From a virus (Duplodnaviria; Heunggongvirae; Uroviricota; Caudoviricetes): 59,631 nucleotides of DNA. Location of the stretch: positions 1-59,631 of the IMG/VR virus record IMGVR_UViG_3300042991_000725; one strand, given 5' to 3'. The translations under genes were made by a program, and so were the position numbers. This document shows, one piece after another, positions 11,304-41,323 of this stretch; the first letter of the stretch is position 1; the number at the start of each line of letters is the position of its first letter. The notes under the pieces are model-generated. The model worked only from the letters and a program-made list of their open reading frames with translations, had not been told where the DNA came from and ran no database searches.

Positions 11304-11735
11304 ATGGCAACTGATATAGCAAAAGGTAATTTAACAGCTTGGTGGCGATTTGGAGAGAGCTCTTGGGACGGCACTCCGGCTCAAGTTCTTGATTTATCAG
11401 GTTATGGGAAACATGGTACAGCTGTAGGAAGTTTAACGACTATTAATTCTGGCAAAGTTGCTTCGTATTCTGCCGACTTCACTGATGCGACTACAAAATA
11501 TGTTGATAATTTAGCTGTTCATTTAGACACTTTATCATCCTGGACAGTGCATGCCAGCGGATTGTTTGAATTGGGAAGAGCTTTTTTAGGGACTCCTGTG
11601 AACGACTTAAATGGTCAAATAGATGAATTTAGAGTCCAGAAAGGGATAGCTGTTTGGACTTCAAATTTTGCTCCGCCGATTGGCGAGTACCATATTCCAG
11701 ACGTTTATGGAGAATCTGTTTATGGCTGGTTATAA
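11304..11735 (+). CDS. LamG/concanavalin-like domain virion protein (internally shortened)
   Basis: LTAWWRF...DLSGYGKHGT start and LNGQIDEFRVQKG...WTSNFAPP end are LamG-type; central strands seem to be missing. Confidence 0.7.
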   Translation: MATDIAKGNLTAWWRFGESSWDGTPAQVLDLSGYGKHGTAVGSLTTINSGKVASYSADFTDATTKYVDNLAVHLDTLSSWTVHASGLFELGRAFLGTPVNDLNGQIDEFRVQKGIAVWTSNFAPPIGEYHIPDVYGESVYGWL

Positions 11736-12357
11736 AACAGACAGTTTTTATGGATATGTTGGGACCAAAGAAGAGGTTGAATCAACCATTTATGGGTCCA
11801 GCCAAGGTGGAGAATACAAAAGTGACTCCATTTATGGTTATGCAAAAGGAGCATTATTAGAATCTTTCTATGGATTCACAAGAGCTAAAATAGAATCTAG
11901 TATTTATGGAGTGTTAGAGGGTAGCTCGTCTGCAGAAGTCAGTATTCATGCTCTCATCCCTTTAGTCGCCGAAGGCGTTGTTGTAGAGTCTTTGAACGGG
12001 AATATTTATGGATTCACTGGGTTAACATTGCCCGGTTCATCGGTTAAGATAGCGGGTGTGTATGGATACGCTGGCAGTATAGCGCAATCGGCATCGGAAC
12101 AAGTTTATGGTCATGCCAAGATGAATACACACTTGACAGACAGCGTTTATGGCATTGCTGAAGTTTCAACATACAGTGTTTCTGAAGGTATTTATGGTTA
12201 TACTATCAACTATATAGATTTAAATGAACAAGTTTATGGTGTAGCATTCAATGATCAAGAAAATGTTGTGTCTGTTTATGGATGGACTAGAGCTGGATTC
12301 CAATTATTAACAGATGAGTTCTGGGCATATACAAGGGGATATACCAATTTAAGGTAG
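11722..12357 (+). CDS. [S/Q/G]-[IVF]-Y-G repeat protein; possibly the frameshifted continuation of 11304..11735
   Basis: 12 xYG motifs at roughly 11-17 aa spacing; same motif begins in the last residues of the upstream ORF. Confidence 0.7.
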   Translation: MAGYKTDSFYGYVGTKEEVESTIYGSSQGGEYKSDSIYGYAKGALLESFYGFTRAKIESSIYGVLEGSSSAEVSIHALIPLVAEGVVVESLNGNIYGFTGLTLPGSSVKIAGVYGYAGSIAQSASEQVYGHAKMNTHLTDSVYGIAEVSTYSVSEGIYGYTINYIDLNEQVYGVAFNDQENVVSVYGWTRAGFQLLTDEFWAYTRGYTNLR

Positions 12358-12363
12358 AAAATT

Positions 12364-14019
12364 ATGGCTTACCAGCTTACATATAATTTGTCTAATATTC
12401 TAACTGCTGCTCAAATTAATGACATAGACGGTGGCACCACCACTTTTAAAGCCAATAAAGGATGGGTTTTTGATCCCACCCCTCTTATTACAATGGAAGA
12501 CACGTGGGAGCGTCAGCCCAACGAAGATAAAATAAGACGTAAAGTGACTATGACATTAAAGGGGACATTATTGAGCGTCGATGACAGCACAGAAGACGCC
12601 AATGGTCTTTCGAATGCTCCTAATTTAGAAAACATCTATTTAAAAAAGAAATTGTTGGTAAATGCTTTTGCTTATGACCGTGGTGAACTTACTCTTGAAA
12701 CGGTGGGGGGGGATGTAATATTTACTCATAAGCCAGTGATTAACAGCATTAGTTTTGAAGAAGGTGTATGGGTTAATAGAATTGATTTCACAATAGCACT
12801 TGAGGCCGAGTCTGATTATACAGACCAACGCATTTCTTCTGGCTCCGAATCAATCGACGTTACTTTTAATGCTGAGAATGACACACTGGAAGTGAATAGG
12901 ACAATTAGCGCCACCGGTATGGTTTATAGATATGGCAGTGACCCTGACGAGAAAATTGAGGCTGTTGATAATGCTAGAGTTTGGGTCTTGTCTAAGATAG
13001 ACGGAAGTGATATAGATGATGTTACGAATACAACCACCTTAAATACATTCTTGGCGAAGTATCGCAATACCACGCTGTCTGGCTCTGCATTATGGAACAC
13101 GGCGCATATACCGGACACTATTTTTCCGGATGCCGAATACTCTACCACCGTAGCAAATTCATTCAGTGAAAGTCGTGATGACTATGCTGGCACCTATCAG
13201 ATTCAGCTCAATTATGTCAAATGTAAAGTTAAGGCTATCGTTGAGGTTAATTATGACACGAACAAGGATTCTAAAGATCAGAAGACGGTAATAACTATAA
13301 ATGGAACAGTGGTAGGATTGGGTATTGATGGGGCTACAAAGTATACCAACGCAGTTATCGAGTATAACAAGCTTATTGGCGCGTCGAATCTAGAAGGCGG
13401 GACAATTTCTATTCCTGTCGATAACTTTCAGACTCCCAAAGATTTGTCTAAATACAACACAAGCAGCGGTAATACCGGATGGACATTACCTTCCAATTTG
13501 ACCAATGCGTCACTTACTAATTGGAGCAGGGGAATAGATGAGAAAAGGGGCACTATAACTTTTTCGTTCACTTTTGATGACAGTTACAAGATTTACAACA
13601 ACAAATACGCTGTAGACCAGTTTGATATAACTAGGCTAAATCCTGCAAGAAAGATCGCTATTATTGACATTCCTTACAGGCAGGCCGGCGCTGTCGTCCA
13701 GGATCTTAAAACGAAGAATATCAAGGAAATGTCCTTAAATATAACAGGCACGGTGCTTAAAATAGATATCAATGGCAACACGGTGGAATTTAATCCGACT
13801 GAGGCTATGTTTAACGACATTTTACTTAGTGTTATTGAGGGTGGACTATTTTCTTCATCTTATCAGAACCAATTAAAAGCCGACCTTATTACGAATGTCA
13901 GCAATGCAAACAATTTGAGTTCGATACTGTCTACTACTACGCTGACTGATGACACGCATGGTTTCGATCCTATTAGAAGGACATTTTCTATAAATCGGAC
14001 CTACAAATATAACGGATAG
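12364..14019 (+). CDS. Putative distal tail/tail-tip protein
   Basis: 551 aa beta-rich, Thr/Asn-rich, downstream of TMP. Confidence 0.5.
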   Translation: MAYQLTYNLSNILTAAQINDIDGGTTTFKANKGWVFDPTPLITMEDTWERQPNEDKIRRKVTMTLKGTLLSVDDSTEDANGLSNAPNLENIYLKKKLLVNAFAYDRGELTLETVGGDVIFTHKPVINSISFEEGVWVNRIDFTIALEAESDYTDQRISSGSESIDVTFNAENDTLEVNRTISATGMVYRYGSDPDEKIEAVDNARVWVLSKIDGSDIDDVTNTTTLNTFLAKYRNTTLSGSALWNTAHIPDTIFPDAEYSTTVANSFSESRDDYAGTYQIQLNYVKCKVKAIVEVNYDTNKDSKDQKTVITINGTVVGLGIDGATKYTNAVIEYNKLIGASNLEGGTISIPVDNFQTPKDLSKYNTSSGNTGWTLPSNLTNASLTNWSRGIDEKRGTITFSFTFDDSYKIYNNKYAVDQFDITRLNPARKIAIIDIPYRQAGAVVQDLKTKNIKEMSLNITGTVLKIDINGNTVEFNPTEAMFNDILLSVIEGGLFSSSYQNQLKADLITNVSNANNLSSILSTTTLTDDTHGFDPIRRTFSINRTYKYNG

Positions 14020-14055
14020 GAAAATAGTCTTAGTTATTGGCACAGCAGTGTTTTC

Positions 14056-14067
14056 GGTGTATATTAG
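14056..14067 (+). promoter_or_regulatory. Candidate late promoter motif GGTGTATATTAG (second copy)
   Basis: Exact repeat of 3058..3069 in an intergenic gap upstream of structural genes. Confidence 0.5.
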
Positions 14068-14151
14068 TACAGGGAGATTGTGTAGGACGGTTCTGTATTT
14101 TGTGGACGTAGATTTATGTAAATTGTTGATTGGTAGGTATATAGATGAATC

Positions 14152-14289
14152 ATGCTTAAGAGAACTTATTTAACCGAAGAACAAATAGTAGATATTAAGG
14201 ATTTACTTAACAATGATTTTGTTACTTCCGCTTATGTTATTGATAAATATAAGGCGATATTAAAAAAGTCAAAGAAAATTAAATTTTGA
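14152..14289 (+). CDS. Small hypothetical protein (45 aa)
   Basis: Manually translated MLKRTYLTEEQIVDIKDLL...; fills intergenic gap. Confidence 0.4.
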   Translation: MLKRTYLTEEQIVDIKDLLNNDFVTSAYVIDKYKAILKKSKKIKF

Positions 14290-14295
14290 ATTTCG

Positions 14296-14916
14296 ATGGA
14301 GGGATATATGAGCAGCTTAGTATTTTGTCATCCGGCCCATCTAGTTGAGGGTGATGAGTATCCGGTTATAAGTGCCGCAGGCTCCGGAACATTCGCGTGC
14401 CTTGCGAGTTTTGGAGCCGGAGGTTTTGGGTTTTCAATTGCAGTGAATTCGTACCAAGATAACAACTACGTTTCGTCAGCAGATGGGCAGACAGAATATC
14501 CGGGAGGAGCCGCGTCTGGCGCTTTGCCTAATTTGAAATATGACGATGCTACTCACGCTTACGTAGCTAATGAATCGTCTGGGACGTTGTTGCAAAGTAT
14601 TGCTGTAGGCGAAGCCACTCTTAAAATTATTGCTGACGGTTTCGGCGCATCTGTTCTCACACAAAATGTTTCACTCCGAGCTTCTGATCGCACCAGTTCC
14701 AATAATGATCCGTCCGGTATTACTGTTCAAGCATTTGAAATTATAGACGGCGGCACTGGTGATACTTCTTGGACGAATATCCATGGCACTACAGACCTTG
14801 ATTTTGCCGATCAAACAGCAGCATCTTCGCACAATTTTTATATGGGGATAAGTGTGCGCCCGGTCAGTCTCGGCTCGAAGGAATATCTATATACTTTTGC
14901 TTTGGAAGCGATTTGA
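14296..14916 (+). CDS. Putative virion structural protein
   Basis: Gly/Ser/Ala-rich beta protein in tail module. Confidence 0.55.
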   Translation: MEGYMSSLVFCHPAHLVEGDEYPVISAAGSGTFACLASFGAGGFGFSIAVNSYQDNNYVSSADGQTEYPGGAASGALPNLKYDDATHAYVANESSGTLLQSIAVGEATLKIIADGFGASVLTQNVSLRASDRTSSNNDPSGITVQAFEIIDGGTGDTSWTNIHGTTDLDFADQTAASSHNFYMGISVRPVSLGSKEYLYTFALEAI

Positions 14917-14966
14917 CGAGCCCTTGTCCATCAACAAGTTGCGCAAACAACAGGAGATTATAAAAG

Positions 14967-15173
14967 ATGAAAAAACTCAAAGTAGTTATTGGTAATTGGT
15001 CCAAGCGTTTAGTCGGCGAAGCTGTTTCTAGCAAAAAGACGGTAGTTGCTGCCACAGGCATTTATTTTATGGCGGCTCTCTACCCGATTCTCGCTTTCAG
15101 TTTGATTGTTGTCTGGATGGTTTGTCAAACTCTTGTTGATATTGCGAAAATGAAGTATGGACAAGATCAGTAA
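14967..15173 (+). CDS. Small membrane protein, holin-like
   Basis: 68 aa; basic N-terminus, SKKTVVA motif, two hydrophobic segments, charged C-terminus. Confidence 0.45.
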   Translation: MKKLKVVIGNWSKRLVGEAVSSKKTVVAATGIYFMAALYPILAFSLIVVWMVCQTLVDIAKMKYGQDQ

Positions 15174-15345
15174 AGTCTTAGATATAGCAGTTGATAGGAT
15201 GATAAAAGAAGAGGCATTTTTGTTTGGTTTTATTCATGAGTTAAATGTGCATGGCGTAGTCAGGAAGGAGAAAAAAGATGGCAGAAAAGAATTACGAAAA
15301 ATTATTAAAACTACAGAAACTGGTGACAGAAAGACCTACGCATGA
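15157..15345 (+). CDS. Hypothetical protein
   Basis: Short ORF overlapping both neighbours. Confidence 0.4.
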   Translation: MDKISKVLDIAVDRMIKEEAFLFGFIHELNVHGVVRKEKKDGRKELRKIIKTTETGDRKTYA

Positions 15346-15715
15346 TACGTATTGGGAAGTTAAACTTAAGTCTGGTCATCAAGTTTTTGATTATATAGAT
15401 TCAAAAGAAAAAGCGGCTTGGCTTAGGCTCGCAGATTACATTAAAAACAGCGGCGATTCCATAGTTGGGATGAGCTTTCGGTTAAAAAAGAAAGTGACAA
15501 CCCTCCCGGATAATGGTGCCGCTTATTTTTTTATTAACAAGCTCATATCTCCTGGCCTAAAAAATACCTTCCATTTTTATGGTGTCGGGTCAACAAAAGA
15601 TAGAGATTTCCTTCGTATTATGATAACGTTTGTTTGCGAGAACGGTTCGTCATATAGGGAAAATAGAGCAAGGGAAAAATGCGGTTTCGGTCTTATTTTC
15701 AACCCGGTGGAGTAA
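15278..15715 (+). CDS. Hypothetical protein
   Basis: SD AGGAG; 145 aa ORF. Confidence 0.7.
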   Translation: MAEKNYEKLLKLQKLVTERPTHDTYWEVKLKSGHQVFDYIDSKEKAAWLRLADYIKNSGDSIVGMSFRLKKKVTTLPDNGAAYFFINKLISPGLKNTFHFYGVGSTKDRDFLRIMITFVCENGSSYRENRAREKCGFGLIFNPVE

Positions 15716-15718
15716 AAT

Positions 15719-19102: not shown

Positions 19103-19103
19103 T

Positions 19104-24496: not shown

Positions 24497-24499
24497 CAT

Positions 24500-26254: not shown

Positions 26255-26609
26255 CATACATAGGAGCAATAGACAGGACAATATTCTTGCGAAACTTAAG
26301 AAACTTTTTCCGTATGATATATTTTATGAAGAAGTAAGAATTCCAGAGACTAGATTGTCTATAGATATATTGTCTCCTTCTTTGCGTGTGGCTGTTGAGG
26401 TGGATTCGGAACTCCATGAAAAGTACAACAAACATTACCACAAAGACTATCATTCTTTTTTGCGAGTGTATAAAAACGATACGCTTAAAAATAAATTATG
26501 CGCCATCAATGGGTTAAAATTAATTAGACTTGATAGGGACGAATATTCTAACGACCAGCTTGCTTCATTAATTTTAATAAAGGAACAGAAGCATGAGCAT
26601 ACAGTCTGA
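26199..26609 (+). CDS. Vsr/DUF559-like PD-(D/E)xK endonuclease
   Basis: EEVRIP...IDI...AVEVDSELH...NDTLKNKLC...LKLIRL. Confidence 0.8.
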   Translation: MQWTTERGQRINLKLTKHSIHRSNRQDNILAKLKKLFPYDIFYEEVRIPETRLSIDILSPSLRVAVEVDSELHEKYNKHYHKDYHSFLRVYKNDTLKNKLCAINGLKLIRLDRDEYSNDQLASLILIKEQKHEHTV

Positions 26610-27390
26610 CGAAATTGTTGCAAGATGGAGTGCATTTATAGAGCTTATTGATAATGTGAAGAATTGTAAGAGCAAGGATAAGTGCAAGTTGTGTGGGAAT
26701 ATGGTGTTCGGTACTGGTCCGTTAAATGCGGAGCTTGTTATTGTTGGAGAAGCAGCGGGGGAAACCGAAGAAATTCTTGGTATCCCGTTCGTTGGTCTTG
26801 CCGGTCTTATGTTGACAAAGATGTTGGCGGCGATAGGTATAGATAGAACGTCTGTTTATATCTGTAATACTGTCAAGGGGCGACCACCAGAGGACAGAAA
26901 GCCAACCTCCGAAGAACTATCTTCATGCAGACATTTCCTCATTGACCAAATAGCCATTGTCAGGCCGAAGGTTATTCTTTGTCTTGGAGAAACTGCGGCA
27001 CAAGCAATCTTGAGTTGTCAGGAAAAAGTGACAGCGTTGCGCGGAAAGGTTATTGACTGGAGCGAGAATGCTAAGACGAAAGTGATTGTCACATATCATC
27101 CTATTTATTTATGCAAGAAGCCGTCTGCCAAGGGCGAGGCAATGAAAGACTTACTCCTTCTCAAATCTGTTCTTGATCAATTGAACCAGGCCCCTGTTGT
27201 TAATGAAACTGTCGCTGTAGAGGCTGTTACCACTTGTGATACATGTGCAGGGAGAACTGTTAAAATTCGCGGATTGTACCCAAAAGATCCAGAGGTGGAA
27301 GTCTGTCCTACGTGTATGAGAGATCGCATTCATCGTACTGTTAGTATGTTGGTGCCGTTAAAGGTGCAAACGAAGGTCATTAATGTTTAA
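26593..27390 (+). CDS. udg: Uracil-DNA glycosylase family 4 with C-terminal Zn-ribbon-like extension
   Basis: VFGTG...VGEAAG.TE...PFVG.AG..L, NTVKGRPP, VTYHP; C-terminal CDTC...CPTC. Confidence 0.92.
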   Translation: MSIQSDEIVARWSAFIELIDNVKNCKSKDKCKLCGNMVFGTGPLNAELVIVGEAAGETEEILGIPFVGLAGLMLTKMLAAIGIDRTSVYICNTVKGRPPEDRKPTSEELSSCRHFLIDQIAIVRPKVILCLGETAAQAILSCQEKVTALRGKVIDWSENAKTKVIVTYHPIYLCKKPSAKGEAMKDLLLLKSVLDQLNQAPVVNETVAVEAVTTCDTCAGRTVKIRGLYPKDPEVEVCPTCMRDRIHRTVSMLVPLKVQTKVINV

Positions 27391-27965: not shown

Positions 27966-28429
27966 CTAAATTTTACTATAGCGTAGTTATGAGCGGAGTA
28001 ACAATAGGTGTTCTATTCTGCTCGGCCTGTTATCTTTTATTTAATTCCAAGCATCCATATTCAACACATTCTGCAATTATATGTATTTTAGTAGGCATTT
28101 TGCAATGCTTCAAGGTTTTCAGAGAGGCCATAACCATATGCGCGTTTGAAAATGTTGTAGATCAAAATAAAAACAAAAATATTGCAGCGCGTGCATTGTG
28201 TAATATTGAAAAAATAGCCATTAATATTAGTGGAAATATAGACGACAGTTGGCAAACGTTTGACCTTGTTAATGACGCTGAAGAGCTTGCTAATTGGCAC
28301 CCCATCATTCTGAAAGAAATAGCGTCTAATCCTAAGAAATTCTTCAAAAATGCTATTGTAACAATGTCGTTGGTGAAAAAGTTTGAGCATTTGGAAAATA
28401 ACGGCGGAACTAAAAATGGTGAAATATGA
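27962..28429 (+). CDS. Membrane protein
   Basis: Two N-terminal hydrophobic segments. Confidence 0.6.
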   Translation: MTKFYYSVVMSGVTIGVLFCSACYLLFNSKHPYSTHSAIICILVGILQCFKVFREAITICAFENVVDQNKNKNIAARALCNIEKIAINISGNIDDSWQTFDLVNDAEELANWHPIILKEIASNPKKFFKNAIVTMSLVKKFEHLENNGGTKNGEI

Positions 28430-29715
28430 TTGCAGGGAAGACTATTTGTATTGTTGGGCTTGGATACGTTGGACTTCCGTTGGCTTTGGCGTTCGGCAAA
28501 CACATTAAAACCATAGGATTTGATGTTTCCGAATCCAAGATTGCTTTTTATAAAAGTGCTATTGATCCTACAGGGGAAGTTGACGCAAAAGCATTTAAAG
28601 ATTCTGTTAATTCAACTTTTACTACAGACGAACGAAGAATAGGCGATGCCGACTTTATTGTTGTCGCTGTACCGACACCTGCAGATGGCGTCAATCCTCC
28701 AGATTTAAGTTATGTTGAGAAGGCGACAGCGGCTGTTGGCAGGAATATGAAGGCCGGGGCTATTGTTATTTATGAATCTACTGTTTATCCGGGAGTTACG
28801 GACGATATATGTGCGCCCATTTTAGAAAAAGAATCCAAAATGAGACGTGGGTCTGGATTCAAGCTTGGATATTCTCCAGAACGCATCAATCCCGGCGATA
28901 AGAATCATTCATTGGAAAACGTTGTTAAGATTGTTAGTGGAGAAGATCAAGAAACCCTTAATACTATTGCTTCACTCTATTCTTTGGTGGTTAGGGCGGG
29001 AGTGTATAAGGCGCCAAGCATAAAAATTGCAGAAGCCGCCAAGGTTATTGAAAATATACAGCGAGATATTAACATTGCACTTATGAATGAATTATCTATT
29101 ATTTTCCATAGAATTGGAATAGATACTGTGGATGTGCTTGAAGCCGCAGGGACCAAATGGAACTTTTTGCCATTCCGTCCGGGCTATGTTGGCGGTCATT
29201 GCATAAGTCAAGATCCTTACTATCTCTCCTATAAGTCTAAATCGCTAGGATATTACCCACACATTATTCTTGCAGGGAGACGTATCAATAATGGAATGGG
29301 AAAATATATAGCTGAACAAACAGTCAAGAGAATGATTGAGTTTAATCGGAATATAAAAGGGGGAAGGGTTCTTGTTTTAGGCATAACATTTAAAGAAAAC
29401 TGTAAAGACTTAAGAAATTCTAAGGTATATGACACGATAAAAGAGCTTGAAAGTTATGGAATCGAGGTGAGTGTTTATGATCCGGTTGCCGATCCAGAGG
29501 AAGTAACAAGGGAGTATGGAATAAATGCAGTATCGTTGGACACTGTTAAAAATATTGAGGCCGTCATAGCGGCAGTTTCTCATAAAGAAATTATCAATAT
29601 AAATCTTTGTGAACTACGCAAAAGGGCTATCGGCATTATTCCATTCATAGATGTAAAATCTTGTTTTGATAGGGAAAAGTTGGGGTCACTCGGCTTTGAC
29701 GTTTGGAGATTATAA
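28426..29715 (+). CDS. UDP-N-acetylhexosamine (nucleotide-sugar) dehydrogenase, WbpO/TviB-like
   Basis: GLGYVG Rossmann motif, VAVPTP, ESTVYPG, YSPERINPG, AEAAKVIEN, catalytic GGHCI, TFKENC.D.RNSK. Confidence 0.95.
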   Translation: MIAGKTICIVGLGYVGLPLALAFGKHIKTIGFDVSESKIAFYKSAIDPTGEVDAKAFKDSVNSTFTTDERRIGDADFIVVAVPTPADGVNPPDLSYVEKATAAVGRNMKAGAIVIYESTVYPGVTDDICAPILEKESKMRRGSGFKLGYSPERINPGDKNHSLENVVKIVSGEDQETLNTIASLYSLVVRAGVYKAPSIKIAEAAKVIENIQRDINIALMNELSIIFHRIGIDTVDVLEAAGTKWNFLPFRPGYVGGHCISQDPYYLSYKSKSLGYYPHIILAGRRINNGMGKYIAEQTVKRMIEFNRNIKGGRVLVLGITFKENCKDLRNSKVYDTIKELESYGIEVSVYDPVADPEEVTREYGINAVSLDTVKNIEAVIAAVSHKEIININLCELRKRAIGIIPFIDVKSCFDREKLGSLGFDVWRL

Positions 29716-31962: not shown

Positions 31963-31978
31963 ATCTAAGCAGTGCAAA

Positions 31979-32107: not shown

Positions 32108-32110
32108 AAG

Positions 32111-33193
32111 ATGGTTATGGTTGACAATAGTCGCACAAAACGGCTTATTGGATATGCCACAGACAATATAACCGTTGTTATGGATTCTTTGGGCATAGAC
32201 TATGCAGATCGTGGAACGTATTATAATAGCAGTTGTTATGTGCATGGCGGCGATAATGGAACCGCCTTTAGTTGGTCTAAGGATTTTGGGTGTTGGAAAT
32301 GTTTTACGCACGGGTGCGATGATGAATTCGGGCATAACGTTGTTGGTCTTGTTGCCGGCGTTAATAAAGCGGGAAGAGATTCGGCTATTGGGTTTTTATA
32401 CAAATTGTTTTCTGACGAATCGGGGGAGTTGTCTGTACCTAAAGATTATGTCGGCATTAAAAGAGACAGGGCATTTTGTCAAACTAATCTTTTTTTAAAT
32501 GTAGAAGACTTGAATTCTTTGACACATTCTATCTATTTTGAACATCGTGGGTTTCATAGTGATGTTTTGGCCAAATACAGAGTGGGCGAATGTCGGGCTG
32601 GATGGAAAGGCGGACTCAATGGGACTACGAAAACTGCTAACGGCGAAGATTGGCATGGGCTATACAGACCTAGGGCTGTTATTCCTATATTTGATATTGA
32701 TAATAATTTTGTTGGATGGAATGCGCGTACATTAGGAGGGGAAAAAACAAAGTGGCTCCCTCCTCCTGGATTTAAGCGCAACTTGAATTTATTCAATATT
32801 AATTATGCAAAGGATGCGATTAAGGAAACTGGGATAGCGATACTATGCGAGGGTTGTCTCGATGTGCTCAAATTGGTCCAAAATGGTTTTGCAAATGTCG
32901 TTGGTCTTTTTGGTGTATCTATGTCTGAGGCACAGCGCAACTTGCTTATTAAATGTGGCGCAAATGCTATAATAGTAGCGCTTGATAATGACGAGAATAG
33001 GGCCGGGAATTTTGGTGCTGAACGAATAATGTCACGAAATTCGACCTATTTTGATGTCACGAATTTGACAAATTACTTGCCTAAAAAAGATTTTGGCGAG
33101 ATGACCGACTTTGAAACCAGGTCTTTTTATTATTATAAGATTAAACCGGCTATGGAGAAAATTGATGGAAGACAACAAGCTAAACAAATGTAG
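32111..33193 (+). CDS. dnaG: DNA primase (Zn finger + Toprim)
   Basis: C.VH...WKCFTHGC Zn finger; RAVIPI.D...G...R; Toprim CEGCLDV and VALDND..AG. Confidence 0.93.
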   Translation: MVMVDNSRTKRLIGYATDNITVVMDSLGIDYADRGTYYNSSCYVHGGDNGTAFSWSKDFGCWKCFTHGCDDEFGHNVVGLVAGVNKAGRDSAIGFLYKLFSDESGELSVPKDYVGIKRDRAFCQTNLFLNVEDLNSLTHSIYFEHRGFHSDVLAKYRVGECRAGWKGGLNGTTKTANGEDWHGLYRPRAVIPIFDIDNNFVGWNARTLGGEKTKWLPPPGFKRNLNLFNINYAKDAIKETGIAILCEGCLDVLKLVQNGFANVVGLFGVSMSEAQRNLLIKCGANAIIVALDNDENRAGNFGAERIMSRNSTYFDVTNLTNYLPKKDFGEMTDFETRSFYYYKIKPAMEKIDGRQQAKQM

Positions 33194-33821
33194 GCCATTT
33201 ATTGTCGGCGTGTCTGGAAAGAAGAGGTCCGGCAAGTCAACGTTTGCTGACATGATTGTTGATGAGTGTGCTAAAAAAGATCTTTGTTGTGTCCGCATGT
33301 CATTTGCCGATATGCTCAAGGAAACTATTCAAGGCGTTTTTGGTATTAATGAAGAGTTGCTCTGGGGCGATGATGACAAGAAATCTCTTTTGTGTAATGT
33401 TGTGTGGTCTGACAATATCAAAAAGATGTTCCCAAAATATAAAAATAAACATAGCAATATGACAGTGCGTGAACTTCTTCAATTTTTAGGCACAGATGTA
33501 TTCAGATTGCTATTTGGAGAGAATGTATGGAAAGACGCTTTATTTAGAAAGGTCGCAGAAGATAGTAGTATACAGGTGATTATTCTAGACGATTGCAGAT
33601 TTAATGACGAATGCGACAAAATAATAGAACTTGAAGGAATACTCATCAGGCTTAGGCGTGGAGAGGATTCCAAGGACAGCCATGAGAGCGAAACGGCTTT
33701 GGACAATTATAATTGGAAGAATCATAGTTGTTTGGTGATTGATAAAAACGCTTCTATAGAAGAATATAAAAAGATTGCCCATAAAATAGTTGAAGATGAT
33801 ATCGAAAGGAAAGTCAAATGA
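33165..33821 (+). CDS. Deoxynucleoside monophosphate kinase
   Basis: GVSGKKRSGKST P-loop, SFAD.LK, RELLQFLGTD..R, DDCRFNDE, HESE. Confidence 0.9.
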   Translation: MEDNKLNKCRPFIVGVSGKKRSGKSTFADMIVDECAKKDLCCVRMSFADMLKETIQGVFGINEELLWGDDDKKSLLCNVVWSDNIKKMFPKYKNKHSNMTVRELLQFLGTDVFRLLFGENVWKDALFRKVAEDSSIQVIILDDCRFNDECDKIIELEGILIRLRRGEDSKDSHESETALDNYNWKNHSCLVIDKNASIEEYKKIAHKIVEDDIERKVK

Positions 33822-34687
33822 AATGTGAGATGTTGTCGGCATCTAGAGCGGAGTTATTTAGGCGATGTATGTTTGGCTATTTCGTCAAGTATTATTATAA
33901 TGGTTTGGGGCGGGACGATACTACGGCGCTGGATATAGGGACTACAGTTCATGAATGTTTCGAATATATTGGCAAGCATCAAACTGATGTGGTAGATAGA
34001 GACAGTCATAAGCCGATAGTTGATGTCAACGATCTGGTCCTAGAGATTTTCCAAACAACAGAGTATTTTACAAAAAACAAATTAGATGTTAAAGATTTGC
34101 CAAACAACCACATCTATTGCGAGTGCAACACTATAGTCAATAGGTACTTAGATAGTAAGGACTGTGTGTTGTACGACGAAATCTATATAAAAGATGGGCA
34201 ACCCGTTGTGGAGCAAGAGTTTAAGTTAAAAATCGAAGGCTGTGGTCTCAACCAGCCACTGGAAATAACAGGCTTTATGGATATAGCTTTGAAGGTGAAT
34301 AGCGACACCTTGATCATAAACGATTACAAGTCAAGCAAATCTGTAATGCAGTATGATGACATAATTAACAATATACAGCTCAAGATGTACTTCGTTGCCG
34401 CAAAACATATATTCCCTGAAATCAAACACTTCATTATGAGGCTTGATTACTGTAAATTGGGCAAAAATCGTATAGTTACATTCGATAGGGATTATCCATT
34501 GGAAGTAGAATTATTCGGGATTTCCAACAGCATAAAACGCCAAACCGTATCTAATATATATAGAGAGCCGGGATGGTATTGTGACCGCATGTGCATTGGA
34601 AGGGAGCATTGTTATCAGTTGTGGAATTCATTAAAGAAATCTGGTTTGATGAGGGATGAACTCTATGGAAGAGGAACGACAGTTTAA
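33818..34687 (+). CDS. PD-(D/E)xK exonuclease, Cas4/AddB-like with Fe-S Cys ligands
   Basis: LSAS....RRC, GTTVH, GFMDI...DYKS, QLKMY, C-terminal CDRMC...C. Confidence 0.88.
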   Translation: MKCEMLSASRAELFRRCMFGYFVKYYYNGLGRDDTTALDIGTTVHECFEYIGKHQTDVVDRDSHKPIVDVNDLVLEIFQTTEYFTKNKLDVKDLPNNHIYCECNTIVNRYLDSKDCVLYDEIYIKDGQPVVEQEFKLKIEGCGLNQPLEITGFMDIALKVNSDTLIINDYKSSKSVMQYDDIINNIQLKMYFVAAKHIFPEIKHFIMRLDYCKLGKNRIVTFDRDYPLEVELFGISNSIKRQTVSNIYREPGWYCDRMCIGREHCYQLWNSLKKSGLMRDELYGRGTTV

Positions 34688-35432
34688 ATGTAACGCTAAG
34701 CATAATTGTTGTAATTGCAAAGTTTGTGAAACTACTGTATTGGCAGGTAGAGACGGGCACCTTTACATAGACGGTGGCGGCCCTGTCTGTATTTTATGCA
34801 AGTCTTGTAGAAAGTATTATTTGAAAGACCTTGTGCAGGTGAGTAATGAAATAAAGAAGAATCTTGCGCTATTACATGTTGTTTTTGACGACGGGCTTAC
34901 CTTACGACAGCTAATGCTCGGATTTAGTCAACTGGCTGTTGATTTTAACTTCATGCATTCAAATTGTCTCACAGGGATTTTCAACAAAATGTTGTCCATC
35001 CCCAAAAATGAATATAGAACAGAGATTCAGGAAAATTGCTATATAGGTTTTGATACGGAACTTGTTGTTACTAACTTAAAGAAAACAAATACATTAGATA
35101 TTCATCGTTATGCTTATGTAAAATGTCTTGAGCGTTCTGTCGATACAATAGAAAATTATAAACTCACAGATATTATAGATATGAGAGTCCATCTTTCAAA
35201 GATTGCTCCTTTGGTATTTGAATACGATCAACTTGATGAAGACGGAATACCGATTAGAAAAGAAAAGATGAAAGTCACATTGTTGTGGAAAATGTTAGAG
35301 ATATTGAGTGCTATAAGATTTATGTTCGTTAATCTTGAATCTCCTAATGCAGATATGATGACTGAAACAATCAGGGAATATCAAAATATGGTTTTGAAGC
35401 CGCTGATTAACAGAACAATGATGATCAATTGA
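34656..35432 (+). CDS. Cys-rich hypothetical protein
   Basis: N-terminal CCNCKVC and CILCKSC. Confidence 0.6.
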   Translation: MNSMEEERQFKCNAKHNCCNCKVCETTVLAGRDGHLYIDGGGPVCILCKSCRKYYLKDLVQVSNEIKKNLALLHVVFDDGLTLRQLMLGFSQLAVDFNFMHSNCLTGIFNKMLSIPKNEYRTEIQENCYIGFDTELVVTNLKKTNTLDIHRYAYVKCLERSVDTIENYKLTDIIDMRVHLSKIAPLVFEYDQLDEDGIPIRKEKMKVTLLWKMLEILSAIRFMFVNLESPNADMMTETIREYQNMVLKPLINRTMMIN

Positions 35433-35438
35433 GGAACT

Positions 35439-37274
35439 ATGTCTTATATAAGTCTTCATAATCACAGCCATTACAGCATACTTGATAGCTTGATAAGAGT
35501 TGATCAACTATTGGGCATTGCAGATGAGTATAAGATGGAAGCCGTAGCAATTACAGACCACGGCAATTGTTTTGGGCATAATGAGTTTTGGAAATTGCAT
35601 ACTGATAAAAAGGGTAAATTCAAGAACGTCAAACCGATCTTTGGTTGCGAAATTTATGTTGAAGATGGTATAGACAAGTTGACGCATATGATCCTGTTAG
35701 CCAAAAACAACAATGGTCTGCAAAATCTTTACTCTATAGTCTCTGATTCAAATAGAAATTTCAAGAAAAATCCACGTACTACCATACCTATATTAAATCA
35801 GTATGGCAAAGATCTTATATGCATGTCTGCCTGCATTGGCGGCTATACAGCTCGTCCGTTTATTAAAAATGACGAAGCGGAAGGTATGCGCAGGATAGAC
35901 GAGCTATTGAATATCTTTAAGGATGATTTCTATCTGGAAGTGCAGGACGAAAACACAAAGTATTACAATAGCAACGATTACAGCGAAGATAGCATTAGGA
36001 GCTACATGAAGGAATCTACTGCTGATTTAGATAGGCAAGAGATAGAGATGCCCGAACAAGTGCTTATAAAAAAGATATATAGAGAAATTGGGAAGCGGAA
36101 GTCCATTCCTGTTGTTTGTTCGTCTGACCCCCATTATGTCAAGCCTGGGGATGCGTTGTGCCATGACATCCTCTTATGTATCCGTTCACATTCTGTCATT
36201 ACTGATGATAAGAGGACGAAAGAGAATCCAAAAGGCAGACGATTCGCTTTCCCGTGCCATAATTTTTATTTCAAAAACGAAAAATATATGTTGTCAAGAT
36301 TCACGAAAGAAGAGGTTGAGAACACGCACAGAATTGCCAAAATGTGCAATGCAACCATAGAAAAGCGCAAAACATATCCTAAATATAAATTTGTTCCAAG
36401 TGGAGAAACCTCTGTATCATACACAAAGTCTCTGCTCAACTCCGGATGGAAAAGACTGAAGATCGATTTGAAGTCTAATAAAGACGAATATAAGAAAAGA
36501 TTGCATCATGAGTTCGAAGTTTTGGCCAAGTATGACCTGTTGGACTATTTCCTTGTTCTTAAAGACATTGTCAATTTTTGTGAATCTAAGGATATCGATT
36601 CTGGACCGGGGCGCGGATCGGCCGCAGGGTCGTTGCTTTTGTACATTCTCGGCATCACTAAGGTCGATCCAATCAAACACGAATTAATGTTTGGCAGATT
36701 CTTTAATGAAGCCAGAATGAGCAAAGACGCCGGTTCTGGTCTCGATGTGGACATGGACTTTCAGCGCGACAGGCGGGACGAAGTTTTTGCTTATATTAAA
36801 GAAAGATTTGGACAAGATTGCGTCGCTCCAATTATGACAATAGGCACACTCGACTCCAAGTCTGCCGTTAAAGCTGTTGGCCGAGCCTTGGGCCTCAATT
36901 ATGATGATGTCAACAGAATAACCAAAGAATGTTTCCCAAATCATTACGAGGATTTGGCAGACGCAATAAAACAAGAAAATAAATTGCGCCAAGAATACAA
37001 GAAAAACAAAAGACTTTTTGAGCTTGCGCGTATGGTGGAGGGTAACGCCAGCAGTCGTGGCACTCATGCTTGCGGGATTATTATTAACGATAAGCCGCTT
37101 GGTCGTGAATTCCCTCTATGTTGGGATCCAGAAAAGCAGCATCTAATTTCTGGTATTGTCGGCAAAGACATTGACGGACTGGGGTTTACAAAGATTGATA
37201 TTTTAGGATTGTCTTGTCTAAGCATTATCAAAGACACCATCAAAATGATTAAGGATGATTGCCGTGGCAACTAA
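35439..37274 (+). CDS. dnaE: DNA polymerase III alpha subunit, N-terminal half (PHP + palm/catalytic core)
   Basis: HNHSHYS, TDHGN, GCEIY, GRGSAAGS, catalytic DVDMDF, HACG, KIDILGL; stops 22 aa after KIDILGL. Confidence 0.96.
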   Translation: MSYISLHNHSHYSILDSLIRVDQLLGIADEYKMEAVAITDHGNCFGHNEFWKLHTDKKGKFKNVKPIFGCEIYVEDGIDKLTHMILLAKNNNGLQNLYSIVSDSNRNFKKNPRTTIPILNQYGKDLICMSACIGGYTARPFIKNDEAEGMRRIDELLNIFKDDFYLEVQDENTKYYNSNDYSEDSIRSYMKESTADLDRQEIEMPEQVLIKKIYREIGKRKSIPVVCSSDPHYVKPGDALCHDILLCIRSHSVITDDKRTKENPKGRRFAFPCHNFYFKNEKYMLSRFTKEEVENTHRIAKMCNATIEKRKTYPKYKFVPSGETSVSYTKSLLNSGWKRLKIDLKSNKDEYKKRLHHEFEVLAKYDLLDYFLVLKDIVNFCESKDIDSGPGRGSAAGSLLLYILGITKVDPIKHELMFGRFFNEARMSKDAGSGLDVDMDFQRDRRDEVFAYIKERFGQDCVAPIMTIGTLDSKSAVKAVGRALGLNYDDVNRITKECFPNHYEDLADAIKQENKLRQEYKKNKRLFELARMVEGNASSRGTHACGIIINDKPLGREFPLCWDPEKQHLISGIVGKDIDGLGFTKIDILGLSCLSIIKDTIKMIKDDCRGN

Positions 37275-37728
37275 TATAAAAAATCGGCCAATATCAAAAA
37301 TAAGTTGGGAGTTCTGCTGGAATGCGGCGGAAACATTGGCTGATGACATTTCCAAGATAGAACCGGACGCTACTACTATTATTGGTATTATGCGTGGTGG
37401 TATTATTTTTTCTGCCATGCTTCAATATTATTTGGGTTTTTGTGATGTTAAATCATTTGATGTAGACGATCATAATTTGGTTATTTCCACATATGGTGAC
37501 GGTTATCATGGTGGACTTGTAAGTGATGAATTTTATGGCCGCAATATTCTATTGGTTGACGATATTTCAGATACCGGGACCACATTAAATCGGGCTTCAG
37601 CTATTCTTTCACGGTACTGTACGACGATTAAAACCTGTACAATATTCATTAATAACAATACCAAGAAGTTCCCCGATTATTATTTTGGGAAAACGAATGA
37701 TTGGATTTTATATCCTTGGGAGAAATAA
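37255..37728 (+). CDS. Type I (purine) phosphoribosyltransferase
   Basis: IIGIMRGG, PRPP motif LLVDDISDTGTTL, W..YPWE. Confidence 0.9.
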   Translation: MIAVATNIKNRPISKISWEFCWNAAETLADDISKIEPDATTIIGIMRGGIIFSAMLQYYLGFCDVKSFDVDDHNLVISTYGDGYHGGLVSDEFYGRNILLVDDISDTGTTLNRASAILSRYCTTIKTCTIFINNNTKKFPDYYFGKTNDWILYPWEK

Positions 37729-38669
37729 TGGATAGAGAATTGTACTACAAGGACGTTTTACTTCTTCCTAATTACTCAATTGTAGAATCGAGAAACGACA
37801 TAAAAACAACGGTTTTTCTCGGTAGTATGACGTTTGAACTTCCGGTAGTCGCGGCGAATATGCGAAGTGTTATTTCTGAAGACCTTGCTGTTGAAATGGC
37901 TACAAAGAGATATTTCTATATTATGCACAGATTTGGTGTTGATAATATTAAGTTTTGCAGAATGATGGGAGAACGAAAGCTGTATACTTCTATTTCTGTT
38001 GGTGTCAACCAGGAAAGCAAGAGCATTATTAGTGAGCTTGCGGCCAAGAAAATTTATCCTTCTTATGTCTGCATTGACATTGCCCATGGATACGCCGTGA
38101 AGATGCGTGATATGATTGTTTTTATAAAACATGTATTGCCTAAATCATTTATTATTGCCGGAAATGTTTGTACGTCGAATGCCGTTACCGCTTTAGATGA
38201 ATGGGGGGCCGATGCAATTAAGGTGGGCACGAGTGGAGGTAGGGTATGTTCTACGAAGACCGCTACAGGATTCGCTAGACCGCAATTTTCGGCAGTATTG
38301 GAATGCTCAAAAGCAACATCAAAGCCTGTTATCGCAGATGGAGGAGTAGCTGAAATAGGAGACATAAATAAAGCTTTGTGTGCTGGCGCAAGCATGGTAA
38401 TGTGTGGGAATCTTTTTTCGTCATGTGAGGAAAGTCCGGGTGACACATTTACATTTAATGGTATTAGATACAAGTCTTTTTACGGCAGTGCGTCTGAACA
38501 TATGAGCGGCAAGAAGGAATATATCGAAGGGTTCCGTATTGATCAACCAGTAAAAGGTTCTATTTGGGATGTTTATAAACGTATTAACGACGGAGTGCGT
38601 AGTGCAGTTAGTTATGCTGGCGGCACTAATCTTGGTGTTTTTAAGAATGTGAGATGGGTAACTATTTAA
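37728..38669 (+). CDS. guaC: GMP reductase
   Basis: PVVAANM, IDIAHG, IIAGNV, KVG..GG.VCST, IADGG, FYGSAS, YIEG; no CBS domain. Confidence 0.88.
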   Translation: MDRELYYKDVLLLPNYSIVESRNDIKTTVFLGSMTFELPVVAANMRSVISEDLAVEMATKRYFYIMHRFGVDNIKFCRMMGERKLYTSISVGVNQESKSIISELAAKKIYPSYVCIDIAHGYAVKMRDMIVFIKHVLPKSFIIAGNVCTSNAVTALDEWGADAIKVGTSGGRVCSTKTATGFARPQFSAVLECSKATSKPVIADGGVAEIGDINKALCAGASMVMCGNLFSSCEESPGDTFTFNGIRYKSFYGSASEHMSGKKEYIEGFRIDQPVKGSIWDVYKRINDGVRSAVSYAGGTNLGVFKNVRWVTI

Positions 38670-38670
38670 C

Positions 38671-38883
38671 ATGACAACACTTATTATAGATAAAACTGGA
38701 AAATATGAAACTGAATATTCCACCATTCAGTCTGATGAATTTGAAGATTTTATTGGCATTTGGATGGATGATGTTATCGTTGCCGGATGCTTCCTTTATT
38801 TTATGCGGGGGTGGAGTGAATCAAGTGTTAGAGAGTATGTGAAAGAGATGAATTGGAAAATTGAAAGTGAGGTGAAGTCATGA
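38671..38883 (+). CDS. Hypothetical protein
   Basis: 70 aa ORF. Confidence 0.55.
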   Translation: MTTLIIDKTGKYETEYSTIQSDEFEDFIGIWMDDVIVAGCFLYFMRGWSESSVREYVKEMNWKIESEVKS

Positions 38884-38937
38884 AAGTTTATATTGTTACT
38901 AAGGGCCATTATAGTGACTTTGACAAGGGGGGAAACA

Positions 38938-39399
38938 ATGGATGATAATAAGATTTATAATTTTTTTGTAGTAGAAAAATATTTTCAAGAAAAGCGGTGG
39001 GACGTTTTAGCCATGCTTATTAAGGTGATTCTAAAAAAATTCAAGACAGAGGTCAATGTTTCCGCTTACTCTTATTTAAATCCAGAAGACAATTCTAATA
39101 GAGTTAATATAGATATAGAAACTGGCTCATTAAACAAAAGTGCCGAATACGAAGACGGCGATTCATCTGCTGGTTGTAATGGTCGTTTTGTTTTTTTTGA
39201 TTATTATATAGGACAATTGGTTTTAGTCAAAGATTCAGATGTTACTGGAGAAATAACAGAGCTTAAGCTTAACGCTATAGATAAATATTATGGTGTAACA
39301 AGTTATAAAAATACGAATGAATTCGTCGGATTTTTTAAGAAGGAAGAAATAGAGTTAATAGAGGATGATAGTGAAGATGGAGCAAGGAGCAGAAAGTGA
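38938..39399 (+). CDS. Hypothetical protein
   Basis: SD AAGGGGGG before ATG at 38938. Confidence 0.6.
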   Translation: MDDNKIYNFFVVEKYFQEKRWDVLAMLIKVILKKFKTEVNVSAYSYLNPEDNSNRVNIDIETGSLNKSAEYEDGDSSAGCNGRFVFFDYYIGQLVLVKDSDVTGEITELKLNAIDKYYGVTSYKNTNEFVGFFKKEEIELIEDDSEDGARSRK

Positions 39400-39911
39400 A
39401 CACTTACTTCATAGCAGATACCCATTTTGGCCACGCCAATATAATTTTGTATGAGAATAGGCCGTTCCACGATTGTTACGAAATGGACCTTGCGCTAATA
39501 AACAATTGGAACGATAAGGTTGGCCGTCTTGATAAGGTATTTTGTTTGGGCGACTTTGCCCTTTCTAATAAAGGATTTACTACTTTTGTATGCGCTAAAT
39601 TGAACGGCATAAAAAGCCTTATTATGGGCAATCATGACTGCCGATCAGCGTCTTGGTATATAGATGTTGGATTTGATGAAGTTTATAAATATCCGATTAT
39701 TTATCATGATTTTTACATTTTGTCTCACGAGCCTGTTTATTTAAATAATCACATGCCTTATGTGAACATACACGGACATTTGCATAGCAGGAAAATGGAT
39801 AATAAGAAGTATGTTAATGTGTCAGTAGAGAATGTCGAATACGCTCCTGTTGATTTTGATGCTATAAATAACACATTCAATCCTAACGTCGGGATAAACA
39901 TTGGACACTAA
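39396..39911 (+). CDS. Calcineurin-like metallophosphoesterase
   Basis: ADTHFGH, LGDF, GNHD, LSHEP, HGHLH. Confidence 0.93.
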   Translation: MNTYFIADTHFGHANIILYENRPFHDCYEMDLALINNWNDKVGRLDKVFCLGDFALSNKGFTTFVCAKLNGIKSLIMGNHDCRSASWYIDVGFDEVYKYPIIYHDFYILSHEPVYLNNHMPYVNIHGHLHSRKMDNKKYVNVSVENVEYAPVDFDAINNTFNPNVGINIGH

Positions 39912-40284
39912 AAACCATATTCTTGTCGATCTTGATGGCACTCTCGCTTATTACGACGGGCCGTCAGGCGGCGAAGTTGGCAGACCCATTCAATGTATGG
40001 TAGAAAGAGTGCGAAGTGTCCTAGATAACGGTGGAAATGTTAAAATCTTTACAGCTCGTGCAGCCGAAGGCGATCCTATGTATACAGAAGAAGAGAGGCA
40101 GCTGCGGTTGCAGAAAATTGAAGAATGGTGTTTAAAGACATTCGGGAAGAAGATAGAAATTACGGCGACAAAAACACAATATGCAACGGAGATTTGGGAT
40201 GACCGTGCGGTAGCTGTGGAGTCTAATACTGGAAGGATGAAATCCTTTTTTAAGGAAGATAAAAATGCAAAGGCCCGTTCTTAA
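39901..40284 (+). CDS. HAD-superfamily hydrolase (PNKP phosphatase-like)
   Basis: VDLDGTLA, FTAR, K...WDDRAV. Confidence 0.85.
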   Translation: MDTKNHILVDLDGTLAYYDGPSGGEVGRPIQCMVERVRSVLDNGGNVKIFTARAAEGDPMYTEEERQLRLQKIEEWCLKTFGKKIEITATKTQYATEIWDDRAVAVESNTGRMKSFFKEDKNAKARS

Positions 40285-41323
40285 GTTGAGAGAGATCATT
40301 TATGAAATTACCAGCTATTGTCAGAATGGCTGTGAATATTGTGGATCGAAAGAATACAGGGACATTGAAACAGACGAGAATCACATCAAGAGAATTATTG
40401 ATGCAATTGCCGACTATCCGCCAGAGGCTATAGACGTTTCTGGTGGCGACCCATTGGAAGTCTCTTATGACACACACAAATATTTAGTTGCTGAAATGAA
40501 TTCTCGTGGAGTTTGTTGCAAAATTCTCGTTAATCCGCTTTCGTTCAAACGAAACGAATACAACAACATAACCGACTTGTATAGCGTAGTAGGATGTTCT
40601 ATAAACAATGAAGCCGAATTAGCTGCTGCTGAGATGGTTAAGAAGATCGAAAAAACTATCATAACTAATTTCAATATGAGTAACATTTTTATGTTTGATG
40701 CAATATGCCAATATGTTGAGCATCGTTCTTTGGTGTGGCAAATCCAGCATACGATGTATCGTGACAAAGATAACAAGTCTGCTATTTATAATAGTGATGG
40801 AGCCATCAATTACTTGAGAGGAAAAATCGGCACGGCTATCAAATCCGGTATTCGTATTGTTGTTGCAGATAATGCAAATTGCGGATTGTGTGGTGCTGGA
40901 ACTTCATCTATAGGTATCAGGGCTAGTGGCGATATTGTTCCGTGTTTATCCATGGTGTCTTGGAACGACGAACCGTTTATTATAGGCAATGTTCTGGATT
41001 CTGGGTTGCTGTCCTTATGGCGTACAGGATTTGATAAATATAGATTCCATAGCTTTAGGTGCTGCAAGGATCATTGTGGCAATAGAACGATGGTGCCGTC
41101 GGTAGAACCTATTGAGTTTAATATTGAAAAAATACCAAACGCTAAGGAACGGGAACCTGTTACTCCGTCGTATCCACAGCCATGGATAGTCCAGCCTTAT
41201 AGAGTGCAGAGAGACCTCACGGTTTCGACATATGCTGTTTTTGATAGTAGAGATTATTATGGGAAAAATCCATCAGACTACAACCAAGACACCGGAGGCA
41301 AAAGTCATGAAGGTGAAGAATAG
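40265..41323 (+). CDS. Radical SAM/SPASM protein, splicease (PlpX/TIGR03913)-like, with Pro/Tyr-rich C-terminal tail
   Basis: YEIT..CQNGCEYCGS, SGGDPL, WQIQ, CGAGTSSIGI.ASGDIVPCLS, IGNV, C-terminal CCKDHC. Confidence 0.88.
   Translation: MQRPVLKLREIIYEITSYCQNGCEYCGSKEYRDIETDENHIKRIIDAIADYPPEAIDVSGGDPLEVSYDTHKYLVAEMNSRGVCCKILVNPLSFKRNEYNNITDLYSVVGCSINNEAELAAAEMVKKIEKTIITNFNMSNIFMFDAICQYVEHRSLVWQIQHTMYRDKDNKSAIYNSDGAINYLRGKIGTAIKSGIRIVVADNANCGLCGAGTSSIGIRASGDIVPCLSMVSWNDEPFIIGNVLDSGLLSLWRTGFDKYRFHSFRCCKDHCGNRTMVPSVEPIEFNIEKIPNAKEREPVTPSYPQPWIVQPYRVQRDLTVSTYAVFDSRDYYGKNPSDYNQDTGGKSHEGEE

Follow-up and report, generated by a model that had tools for sequence, protein, structure and literature searches.

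The DNA analysed here, referred to below as the window, is the whole stretch of 59,631 nucleotides at positions 1 to 59,631 of the IMG/VR virus record IMGVR_UViG_3300042991_000725 (Caudoviricetes), which belongs to a genome of 154 kb, and the main subject of the analysis is an open reading frame (ORF) encoding a radical S-adenosylmethionine (rSAM) enzyme, here designated P0001. From sequence comparisons across its relatives, the product of this gene may be a self-contained peptide-modifying enzyme of a virus-restricted family, with the substrate fused to the enzyme itself, a reading to which we give a little less than an even chance. The gene and its elements are the following:

40265..41323, + strand: gene of P0001, a radical SAM enzyme of the SPASM/twitch kind (ORF of 352 aa; Pfam, AlphaFold2 (AF2) and Foldseek).
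40319..40342, + strand: radical SAM cluster motif CxxxCxxC (C19, C23 and C26; aa 19-26), invariant in alignments of 56 and of 71 sequences.
40889..41077, + strand: auxiliary-cluster domain, SPASM-type and apparently twitch-like (aa 209-271), from Cys conservation, the Pfam SPASM match and the match to BtrN.
41078..41320, + strand: C-terminal tail rich in Pro and Tyr, predicted to be disordered (aa 272-352; predicted local distance difference test, pLDDT, 43-66).
41189..41206, + strand: degenerate copy of the tail motif, VQPYRV (Y312), which aligns to nearly invariant Y/V columns; context score +2.0.
41222..41239, + strand: canonical copy of the tail motif, VSTYAV followed by F-D-S (Y323); context score +3.6.
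41255..41263, + strand: YYG (aa 331-333), not the family motif; scored -20.0 and -8.1 for context, inside the background range.

The preliminary description had singled out this ORF as an rSAM gene with the motifs WQIQ and CGAG..IGI...GD..PC.S, and both are indeed present, at aa 158-161 and aa 209-229, respectively, with W158, Q161, C209, A211, G212, G217, G222, P226, C227 and S229 being invariant in the family alignment. It was verified that P0001 is matched in Pfam by SPASM (30.2 bits, cut-off 21.5, covering aa 209-271), Fer4_12 (24.2 bits, cut-off 22) and Radical_SAM (22.4 bits), and that its AF2 model is confident over aa 1-280, with pLDDT above 90 in the core. Judged by sequence and predicted structure, P0001 is a member of the rSAM superfamily, carrying the CxxxCxxC motif in a partial TIM barrel together with a Cys-rich auxiliary domain. 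In the alignment of 56 homologs, C19, C23, C26, C209, C227 and C267 are invariant, while C266 and C271 are nearly so, and the conserved cysteines beyond the rSAM core amount to five only (C209, C227, C266, C267 and C271). A full SPASM domain has a set of seven. Because five conserved cysteines follow the core, a number that is enough for and fits a single auxiliary cluster, the auxiliary domain of P0001 appears to be twitch-like and not a full SPASM, and BtrN was the best sequence match to the C-terminal part of P0001 among PDB structures. The Foldseek comparison of the model placed PqqE at the top (E 1.4e-10) and also returned SuiB, SkfB, CteB, ChlB, anSME and EpeE, and a search of BFVD with the rSAM gave distant phage rSAM proteins only, at no more than 20% identity. 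Additionally, P0001 lacks an N-terminal RRE (peptide-recognition) domain, for which there is no room, since the CxxxCxxC motif begins at residue 19.

Past the last Cys cluster, the tails of the family members cannot be aligned between homologs except at a short repeated motif, whose consensus in 115 tails is P-x-[VTI]-x-[VLM]-Y-[G/A]-V-x-[P/T]-P. These tails contain 276 copies of Y[GA]V, a density of 2.38 per 100 aa, versus three copies (0.01 per 100 aa) in the cores, and among 376 Y[GAS] tail sites the +2 residue is Val in 293, with Gly, Ala and Ser at +1 in 185, 156 and 35 sites, respectively. When the tails were set by a domain anchor, at least one copy of [VTI]-x-[VLM]-Y-[G/A]-V was found in 191 of 198 members (about 96%); the seven members devoid of it are all short or truncated, one of them being interrupted by an IS605 element. 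The motif is present across the approximately 254 clusters of the family (50% identity, E <= 1e-30), in one to seven copies per tail, with a Tyr-to-Tyr distance that peaks at 10-13 residues and with YAVF as the commonest form of the last copy. Among 20 close pairs, identity reached 80% at motif positions versus 52% in the remaining tail, Gly and Ala were exchanged at the motif, and entire repeat units were gained or lost. These comparisons of related sequences indicate that constraint acts more strongly on the motif than on the remaining tail. A variant copy, G-T-Y-[VIM]-Y-A-C-P-G-[DG]-W, in which Cys replaces the +2 Val, is fixed in P0010, P0018, P0041, P0061, P0062, P0070 and P0076.

In the tail of P0001 itself, three triads had previously been flagged, namely Y-R-V (aa 312-314), Y-A-V (aa 323-325) and YYG (aa 331-333). 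The first two hold up as copies of the motif found in about 96% of the family tails, with Y312 lying 11 residues ahead of Y323, in line with the family spacing, while YYG falls outside it. The same division was obtained with a context matrix derived from the tail motif of the family, since the contexts of Y312 and Y323 lie above the 95th percentile of the genome background (-4.55) and those of YYG do not. The flagged feature is, as far as the aligned sequences tell, a genuine family-wide motif that is comparatively degenerate in P0001. The earlier suspicion that the tail is special thereby gains strong, if indirect, support, whereas its use as a substrate and a tyramine excision would be proposals. 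Additionally, four other phage genomes, complete or nearly so, were compared; in two of them the rSAM itself has more Y[GA]V copies than any other ORF, and none of the non-rSAM ORFs of the four holds more than two copies.

Concerning the size and range of the family, a word-indexed search recovered 141 homologs with 35-50% identity, many from contigs 80-370 kb long, and an exhaustive hidden Markov model (HMM) search at E <= 1e-30 recovered 254 representatives of clusters formed at 50% identity. In IMG/VR, 17 rSAM loci were identified, 13 of which lie on viral contigs of 79-372 kb. Across 185,579 species genomes, matches to the family were found on two small contigs of metagenome-assembled genomes only, and a tblastn search of 50,697 GenBank phage records with P0001 gave no match. 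From this distribution, the family is hardly found outside large phages that are uncultivated. One member, P0048, is a genuinely tailless rSAM and has no motif-bearing ORF nearby; among the tailless members examined, a split form composed of a tailless rSAM and a small separate motif ORF was not encountered. In P0090, the tail was removed by an IS605-family element (TnpB and a Y1 transposase) located at the 3' end (L008:3886-5605). No description of this family, of a substrate-fused rSAM, of a phage rSAM with a Tyr-motif tail or of a phage splicease was found in the literature, and, from its sequence relationships, this apparently undescribed family would sit among the rSAM peptide maturases.

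It is already known that rSAM peptide maturases as a rule act on a precursor encoded separately and depend on an element that recognises its leader. The tail of this family is read as a fused substrate because it carries a conserved and constrained motif while the enzyme has neither a recognition domain nor a partner gene. According to this proposal, the catalytic part (aa 1-271) would consist of a compact rSAM barrel and a one-cluster SPASM/twitch domain devoid of an RRE, and the disordered tail would supply, every 10-13 residues, short hydrophobic motif strands as the enzyme's own substrate. Cleavage of SAM would generate the 5'-deoxyadenosyl radical, which would abstract a hydrogen from a Y-[G/A]-V triad in the tail of the enzyme itself, either in cis or between protein copies, and each repeat would receive one modification, as in multi-core precursors of peptides made on the ribosome and modified after translation (RiPPs) and in the fused methyltransferase-precursors of borosins. 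In relation to the chemistry, a triceptide-type crosslink is favoured over X-Y-G splicing because the Tyr is invariant, the +1 residue is small, with Gly about as frequent as Ala, and the +2 residue is the beta-branched Val, so that a carbon-carbon crosslink from Tyr to Val(+2) would, by analogy, fit best. An epimerisation of the YydG/EpeE type is another possible chemistry for an enzyme that is small and has one auxiliary cluster along with spare conserved Cys, and a tyramine excision of the splicease type would likewise be possible by analogy.

The contact between the two parts of the protein was evaluated by complex prediction, with the core (aa 1-282) and the tail (aa 283-352) given as two chains alongside controls. 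The core-tail score was 0.56 (runs of 0.56, 0.76 and 0.46) versus 0.02 for the best control, which was rated as weak support. For reference, 58 of 80 solved complexes attain the pass mark, as do two of 110 mismatched pairs, with scores of 0.60 or less in only seven of those 80 solved complexes and in both mismatches. The runs had at least 58% of their contacts in common and a partner pLDDT of at least 40. Because both chains are contiguous in one polypeptide, this score was given little weight.

Several points weigh against a tail that serves as the enzyme's own substrate. The weak core-tail score could be explained by predicted contacts near residue 283, the support for tail modification is entirely comparative, drawn from related sequences, and it is unusual for an enzyme to be its own substrate in stoichiometric amounts. 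The tail of P0001 holds one canonical and one degenerate copy only. Viperin and MoaA are, in the Foldseek comparison, about as close to the P0001 fold as the peptide maturases are, and genes of nucleotide metabolism are frequent among the rSAM neighbours. Five members (P0012, P0014, P0026, P0069 and P0088) have a Zn-ribbon-like CxxC segment as the end of the tail, folded confidently by AF2 in P0012 (pLDDT 86-91), and in such tails the motif region looks, in the models, like an interdomain linker. Additionally, four tails (P0030, P0072, P0108 and P0127) end in an SSB-like acidic DDLPF tip, and both kinds of ending fit a docking role.

Such endings bring in the main rival explanation, in which the motifs would be docking or oligomerisation strands, pairing by beta-augmentation with a host or phage partner or with each other, and the core would act on an unlinked host protein, RNA or metabolite. 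In fact, the motifs are six-residue hydrophobic strands set between prolines in a disordered region, AF2 returned them as undocked, low-confidence hairpins (pLDDT 43-66 for the tail of P0001 and 47-58 for that of P0012, which has four motifs), and a phage-encoded substrate is not indicated by any conserved neighbour gene. On the other hand, an invariant Tyr, a small +1 residue, a +2 Val, a variable number of copies and a fixed spacing compose the pattern of a multi-core rSAM substrate, the enzyme has no other substrate-recognition domain, several peptide maturases are among its nearest solved folds, and the core-tail complex score, weak as it is, stands well over the controls. Considering both sides, docking or oligomerisation is regarded as unlikely, yet as the alternative to be taken most seriously.

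A further alternative arises from the genomic context of the gene, which lies among about ten genes in a 5.3-kb insert between the two halves of an apparently split DNA polymerase:

35439-37274 and 42611-44116: apparent halves of the split DNA polymerase, matching adjoining stretches of one PHROG profile (phrog_405 positions 42-617 and 626-1065, respectively).

The insert also holds a phosphoribosyltransferase, a protein similar to IMPDH/GMP reductase, a metallophosphoesterase and a 127-aa protein, the latter being labelled 'phosphoheptose isomerase' in PHROGs and having, by eye, a HAD-like DxDGT start. The phosphoribosyltransferase gene adjoins that of the IMPDH/GMP-reductase-family protein (205 bits) at 37255-38669, and the two may represent a phage purine-salvage or purine-conversion pair. 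The replication module additionally encodes a UDG-family protein (26593-27390), a UDP-glucose dehydrogenase (28426-29715), a dNMP kinase (33111-33821) and a GT1 glycosyltransferase with DUF4214 (44709-46391), a set that, as annotated from sequence, suggests modified and possibly glycosylated DNA bases. At the other rSAM loci, the neighbours are differing small early genes, and some homologs are found near NUDIX, dUTPase, HD and dGTPase-like genes. An all-against-all BLASTP of the ORFs within 3 kb at the 17 loci revealed no recurrent neighbour family besides the rSAM. HAD-like, metallophosphoesterase and HD genes had seemed to recur beside the rSAM, but that comparison did not bear this out.

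Based on this context, P0001 could be a nucleotide- or DNA-modifying rSAM of a nucleotide-metabolism island, comparable to viperin, MoaA or the rSAM of thymidine hypermodification, with the tail as an accessory. This is favoured by the position of the gene in the split-polymerase block among the four products named above, by the presence in the window of the dNMP kinase, the UDG-family protein, the UDP-glucose dehydrogenase and the glycosyltransferase, by the nucleotide-related genes near some homologs, and by the occurrence of viperin and MoaA among the fold matches, to which PADLOC adds weak pVip HMM matches of 26-39 bits limited to the N-terminal core. However, the neighbours are variable, with none conserved over the 17 loci, no GenBank phage gave a tblastn match to P0001, and the conserved tail motif is left unexplained. 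Furthermore, M6 gp53, the known phage rSAM of DNA hypermodification, belongs to a different lineage that resembles spore photoproduct lyase (SPL), and its Cys motif lies at residue 125 (PMC8989533). A role in nucleotide or DNA modification is, on this evidence, quite improbable.

The remaining alternative links the enzyme to a protein of the tail module, encoded about 28 kb away, since the preliminary description had proposed a splicease of the PlpX type acting on its own tail, on a YG-repeat virion protein or on both. The genes concerned are the following:

11722..12357 (alternative start at 11707), + strand: orphan tail-module protein with 12 [IVF]YG motifs spaced by 12-15 aa; GGAG lies 9 nt upstream of the ATG at 11722.
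11304..11735, + strand: upstream ORF of 143 aa, ending in VYG-ES-VYG-WL, with weak matches to phage tail/baseplate families.
6433..11289, + strand: tape measure protein (phrog_4211, E 3.1e-70).

All of the 14 xYG motifs previously reported at 11700-12330 are present, but they are split over two reading frames, 12 in the YG protein and two as VYG in the final ten codons of the ORF at 11304-11735. The assignment to the virion module was sound, as the YG gene lies two genes 3' of the tape measure gene. The ORF at 11304-11735 and the YG ORF overlap by 14 nt, and a +1 shift at TTA-TAA-A would give one protein of 14 repeats; such a frameshift fusion is conceivable but would be unnecessary, because the GGAG ahead of the ATG permits ordinary coupled initiation. 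The density of [IVF]YG is far over chance, considering that the whole 154-kb genome has 226 YG in 103,549 ORF residues and that its next richest ORF has five copies. The next YG-rich ORF of this genome, at 74443-75066 on the - strand and outside the window, encodes an unrelated pentapeptide-repeat protein (A-N-L-S-x repeats) and is the sole further ORF there with several [ILVMF]YG. The YG gene displays no tandem repeat at the DNA level, and the repeats would therefore be old and kept at the protein level.

The YG protein had no homologs in GenBank phages by tblastn or in an index of 5.8 billion proteins at near and longer lengths, and no Pfam or NCBIfam model, including those of YG and cell-wall-binding repeats, matched it at E <= 1. 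The sole lead is an Atlas model of low confidence with a faint likeness to a beta-helix of the pertactin type (query TM 0.56, pLDDT 0.54), and an IMG/VR search with the downstream 551-aa protein recovered no relatives of the tail module. Co-occurrence of the two genes, put forward earlier as a check, was not borne out, given that five rSAM-bearing IMG/VR genomes gave no match to the YG protein, which left no homologs for a homology-based comparison, and that no ORF of the four rSAM-bearing genomes scanned whole holds more than four [ILVMF]YG, the few ORFs with four being unrelated repeat proteins. Likewise, on the tail-motif matrix the YG repeat context scored -13.6, within a genome background of -15.3 +/- 6.3 and far from the mean of +11.9 of the true tail sites. 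The YG protein is probably a lineage-specific structural tail protein, and these sequence comparisons indicate that its repeats are unlinked to the rSAM, so that the proposed modification of this virion protein finds no support.

The identity of the enzyme as a splicease fared no better. TIGR03913, whose equation with the PlpX family was not confirmed from the literature, scored 16.7 bits (cut-off 591.75) on P0001, in an alignment limited to aa 11-88 that does not reach the WQIQ and CGAG motifs formerly taken as its markers; the CGAG...GD..PC pattern is the generic opening of SPASM and twitch domains (Cx9-15Gx4C). The nif11-type maturase models TIGR04064 (14.1 bits, cut-off 518.7) and TIGR04103 (14.2 bits, cut-off 725) performed similarly, and NCBIfam as a whole gave weak partial matches only, the best being TIGR04133 (31.6 bits, cut-off 425). 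Every splicease-candidate model thus failed by more than 500 bits, and membership in PlpX/TIGR03913 is further weakened by the five cysteines found in place of seven and by the absence of a conserved partner gene.

The splicease proposal, in which tyramine would be excised at xYG in the enzyme's own tail and/or in the tail-module protein with 12 YG repeats, nevertheless has points in its favour. XYG is the site of action of spliceases, which are able to modify whole proteins and to dispense with a leader (PMC11414181), Y-G is present in about half of the family motif copies, and the 12 [IVF]YG of the YG protein recur at a spacing, 12-15 residues, similar to that of the tail motifs. However, in the family tails Ala is nearly as frequent as Gly at +1 (156 versus 185, with 35 Ser), the copies of P0001 read Y-R-V and Y-A-V, and the best-conserved neighbour is the +2 Val, which would fit an XYG pattern poorly. 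Spliceases need an activating Y protein (PqqD-like) or a leader helix on the substrate (PMC11414181), and neither was found for the rSAM, whose 17 loci have no recurrent neighbour and which has no N-terminal extension. The family scores of TIGR03913, TIGR04064 and TIGR04103, the five conserved cysteines pointing to one auxiliary cluster, the orphan state of the YG protein, the background-level repeat context and the location of the rSAM in the replication module, distant from the tail genes, also speak against it. This makes a splicease paired with the YG protein the least likely of the readings considered and a very improbable one, and the pairing is best regarded as a coincidence in one genome that should not be propagated.

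Returning to an enzyme that carries its own substrate, this would be the first rSAM family with a multi-core substrate as its tail and the source of a virus-made modified effector, such as a protease-resistant or inhibitory segment used in infection, an extension that is put forward tentatively and with some doubt. If the proposal is true, an enzyme of about 280 aa and a tethered six-residue motif would constitute a minimal leader-free system of radical protein modification, useful in protein engineering, and phages would be shown to make post-translationally modified proteins of their own. Additionally, the family is a large one, with about 254 clusters at 50% identity, yet cultured phages lack it and cellular genomes have it almost nowhere, which makes its function a blind spot in phage biology.

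Among the known systems, the spliceases (PlpX, PcpX and RhaX, of spliceotide RiPPs) likewise combine an rSAM with a SPASM-type domain and act on short Tyr-centred motifs that can be repeated, an action that for P0001 is only proposed. They differ in their motif, X-Y-G, since that of the present family is Y-[G/A]-V with hydrophobic residues at -1 and -3; in addition, this family has about five conserved cysteines in place of a full SPASM, has neither a Y protein nor a leader helix, is found in viruses only and would have its putative substrate fused to the enzyme. PqqE and MftC, the maturases of PQQ and mycofactocin, also target the Tyr of a short peptide, MftC linking Val to Tyr, and PqqE is the top fold match; however, both depend on PqqD-type RRE partners, have two auxiliary clusters, act on a single site near the peptide C-terminus and share about 15% identity with P0001. 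The YydG/EpeE epimerases resemble P0001 in being compact (about 320 aa), with an rSAM core, one auxiliary cluster and a conserved extra Cys, and in targeting Val or Ile in short hydrophobic stretches, and EpeE is among the Foldseek matches of P0001. On the other hand, the TM-score of EpeE to P0001 is only about 0.40, its substrate is a separate peptide and it is bacterial. Epimerisation is mass-neutral.

The triceptide synthases (3-CyFE rSAM/SPASM enzymes, such as XyeB) act on repeated aromatic-X-X motifs, linking the ring to the C-beta of the third residue, a form matched by the Y-[G/A]-V of the family tails, in which both end positions are conserved and one to seven copies occur. To our knowledge, a Tyr-x-Val triad is not among the known triceptide motifs. 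In triceptide synthases, an RRE accompanies a SPASM domain with two clusters, and the precursor peptide is a separate gene product, whereas the present family has no RRE, five cysteines and no conserved small neighbour ORF, and the NCBIfam scan revealed no HMM relation between P0001 and these enzymes. An architectural parallel lies in the borosin precursors (OphMA/dbOphMA), in which a methyltransferase is fused to its own C-terminal core peptide, giving the same order of catalytic part and tail. Borosins are fungal or bacterial and rely on SAM methyltransferase chemistry, and for the rSAM family autocatalysis is proposed by analogy; in both cases, as a fact for the former and as a proposal for the latter, a separate precursor or recognition element is not needed, and the borosin-like layout, with the motif in the C-terminal tail of the same ORF, is observed in 191 of the 198 members.

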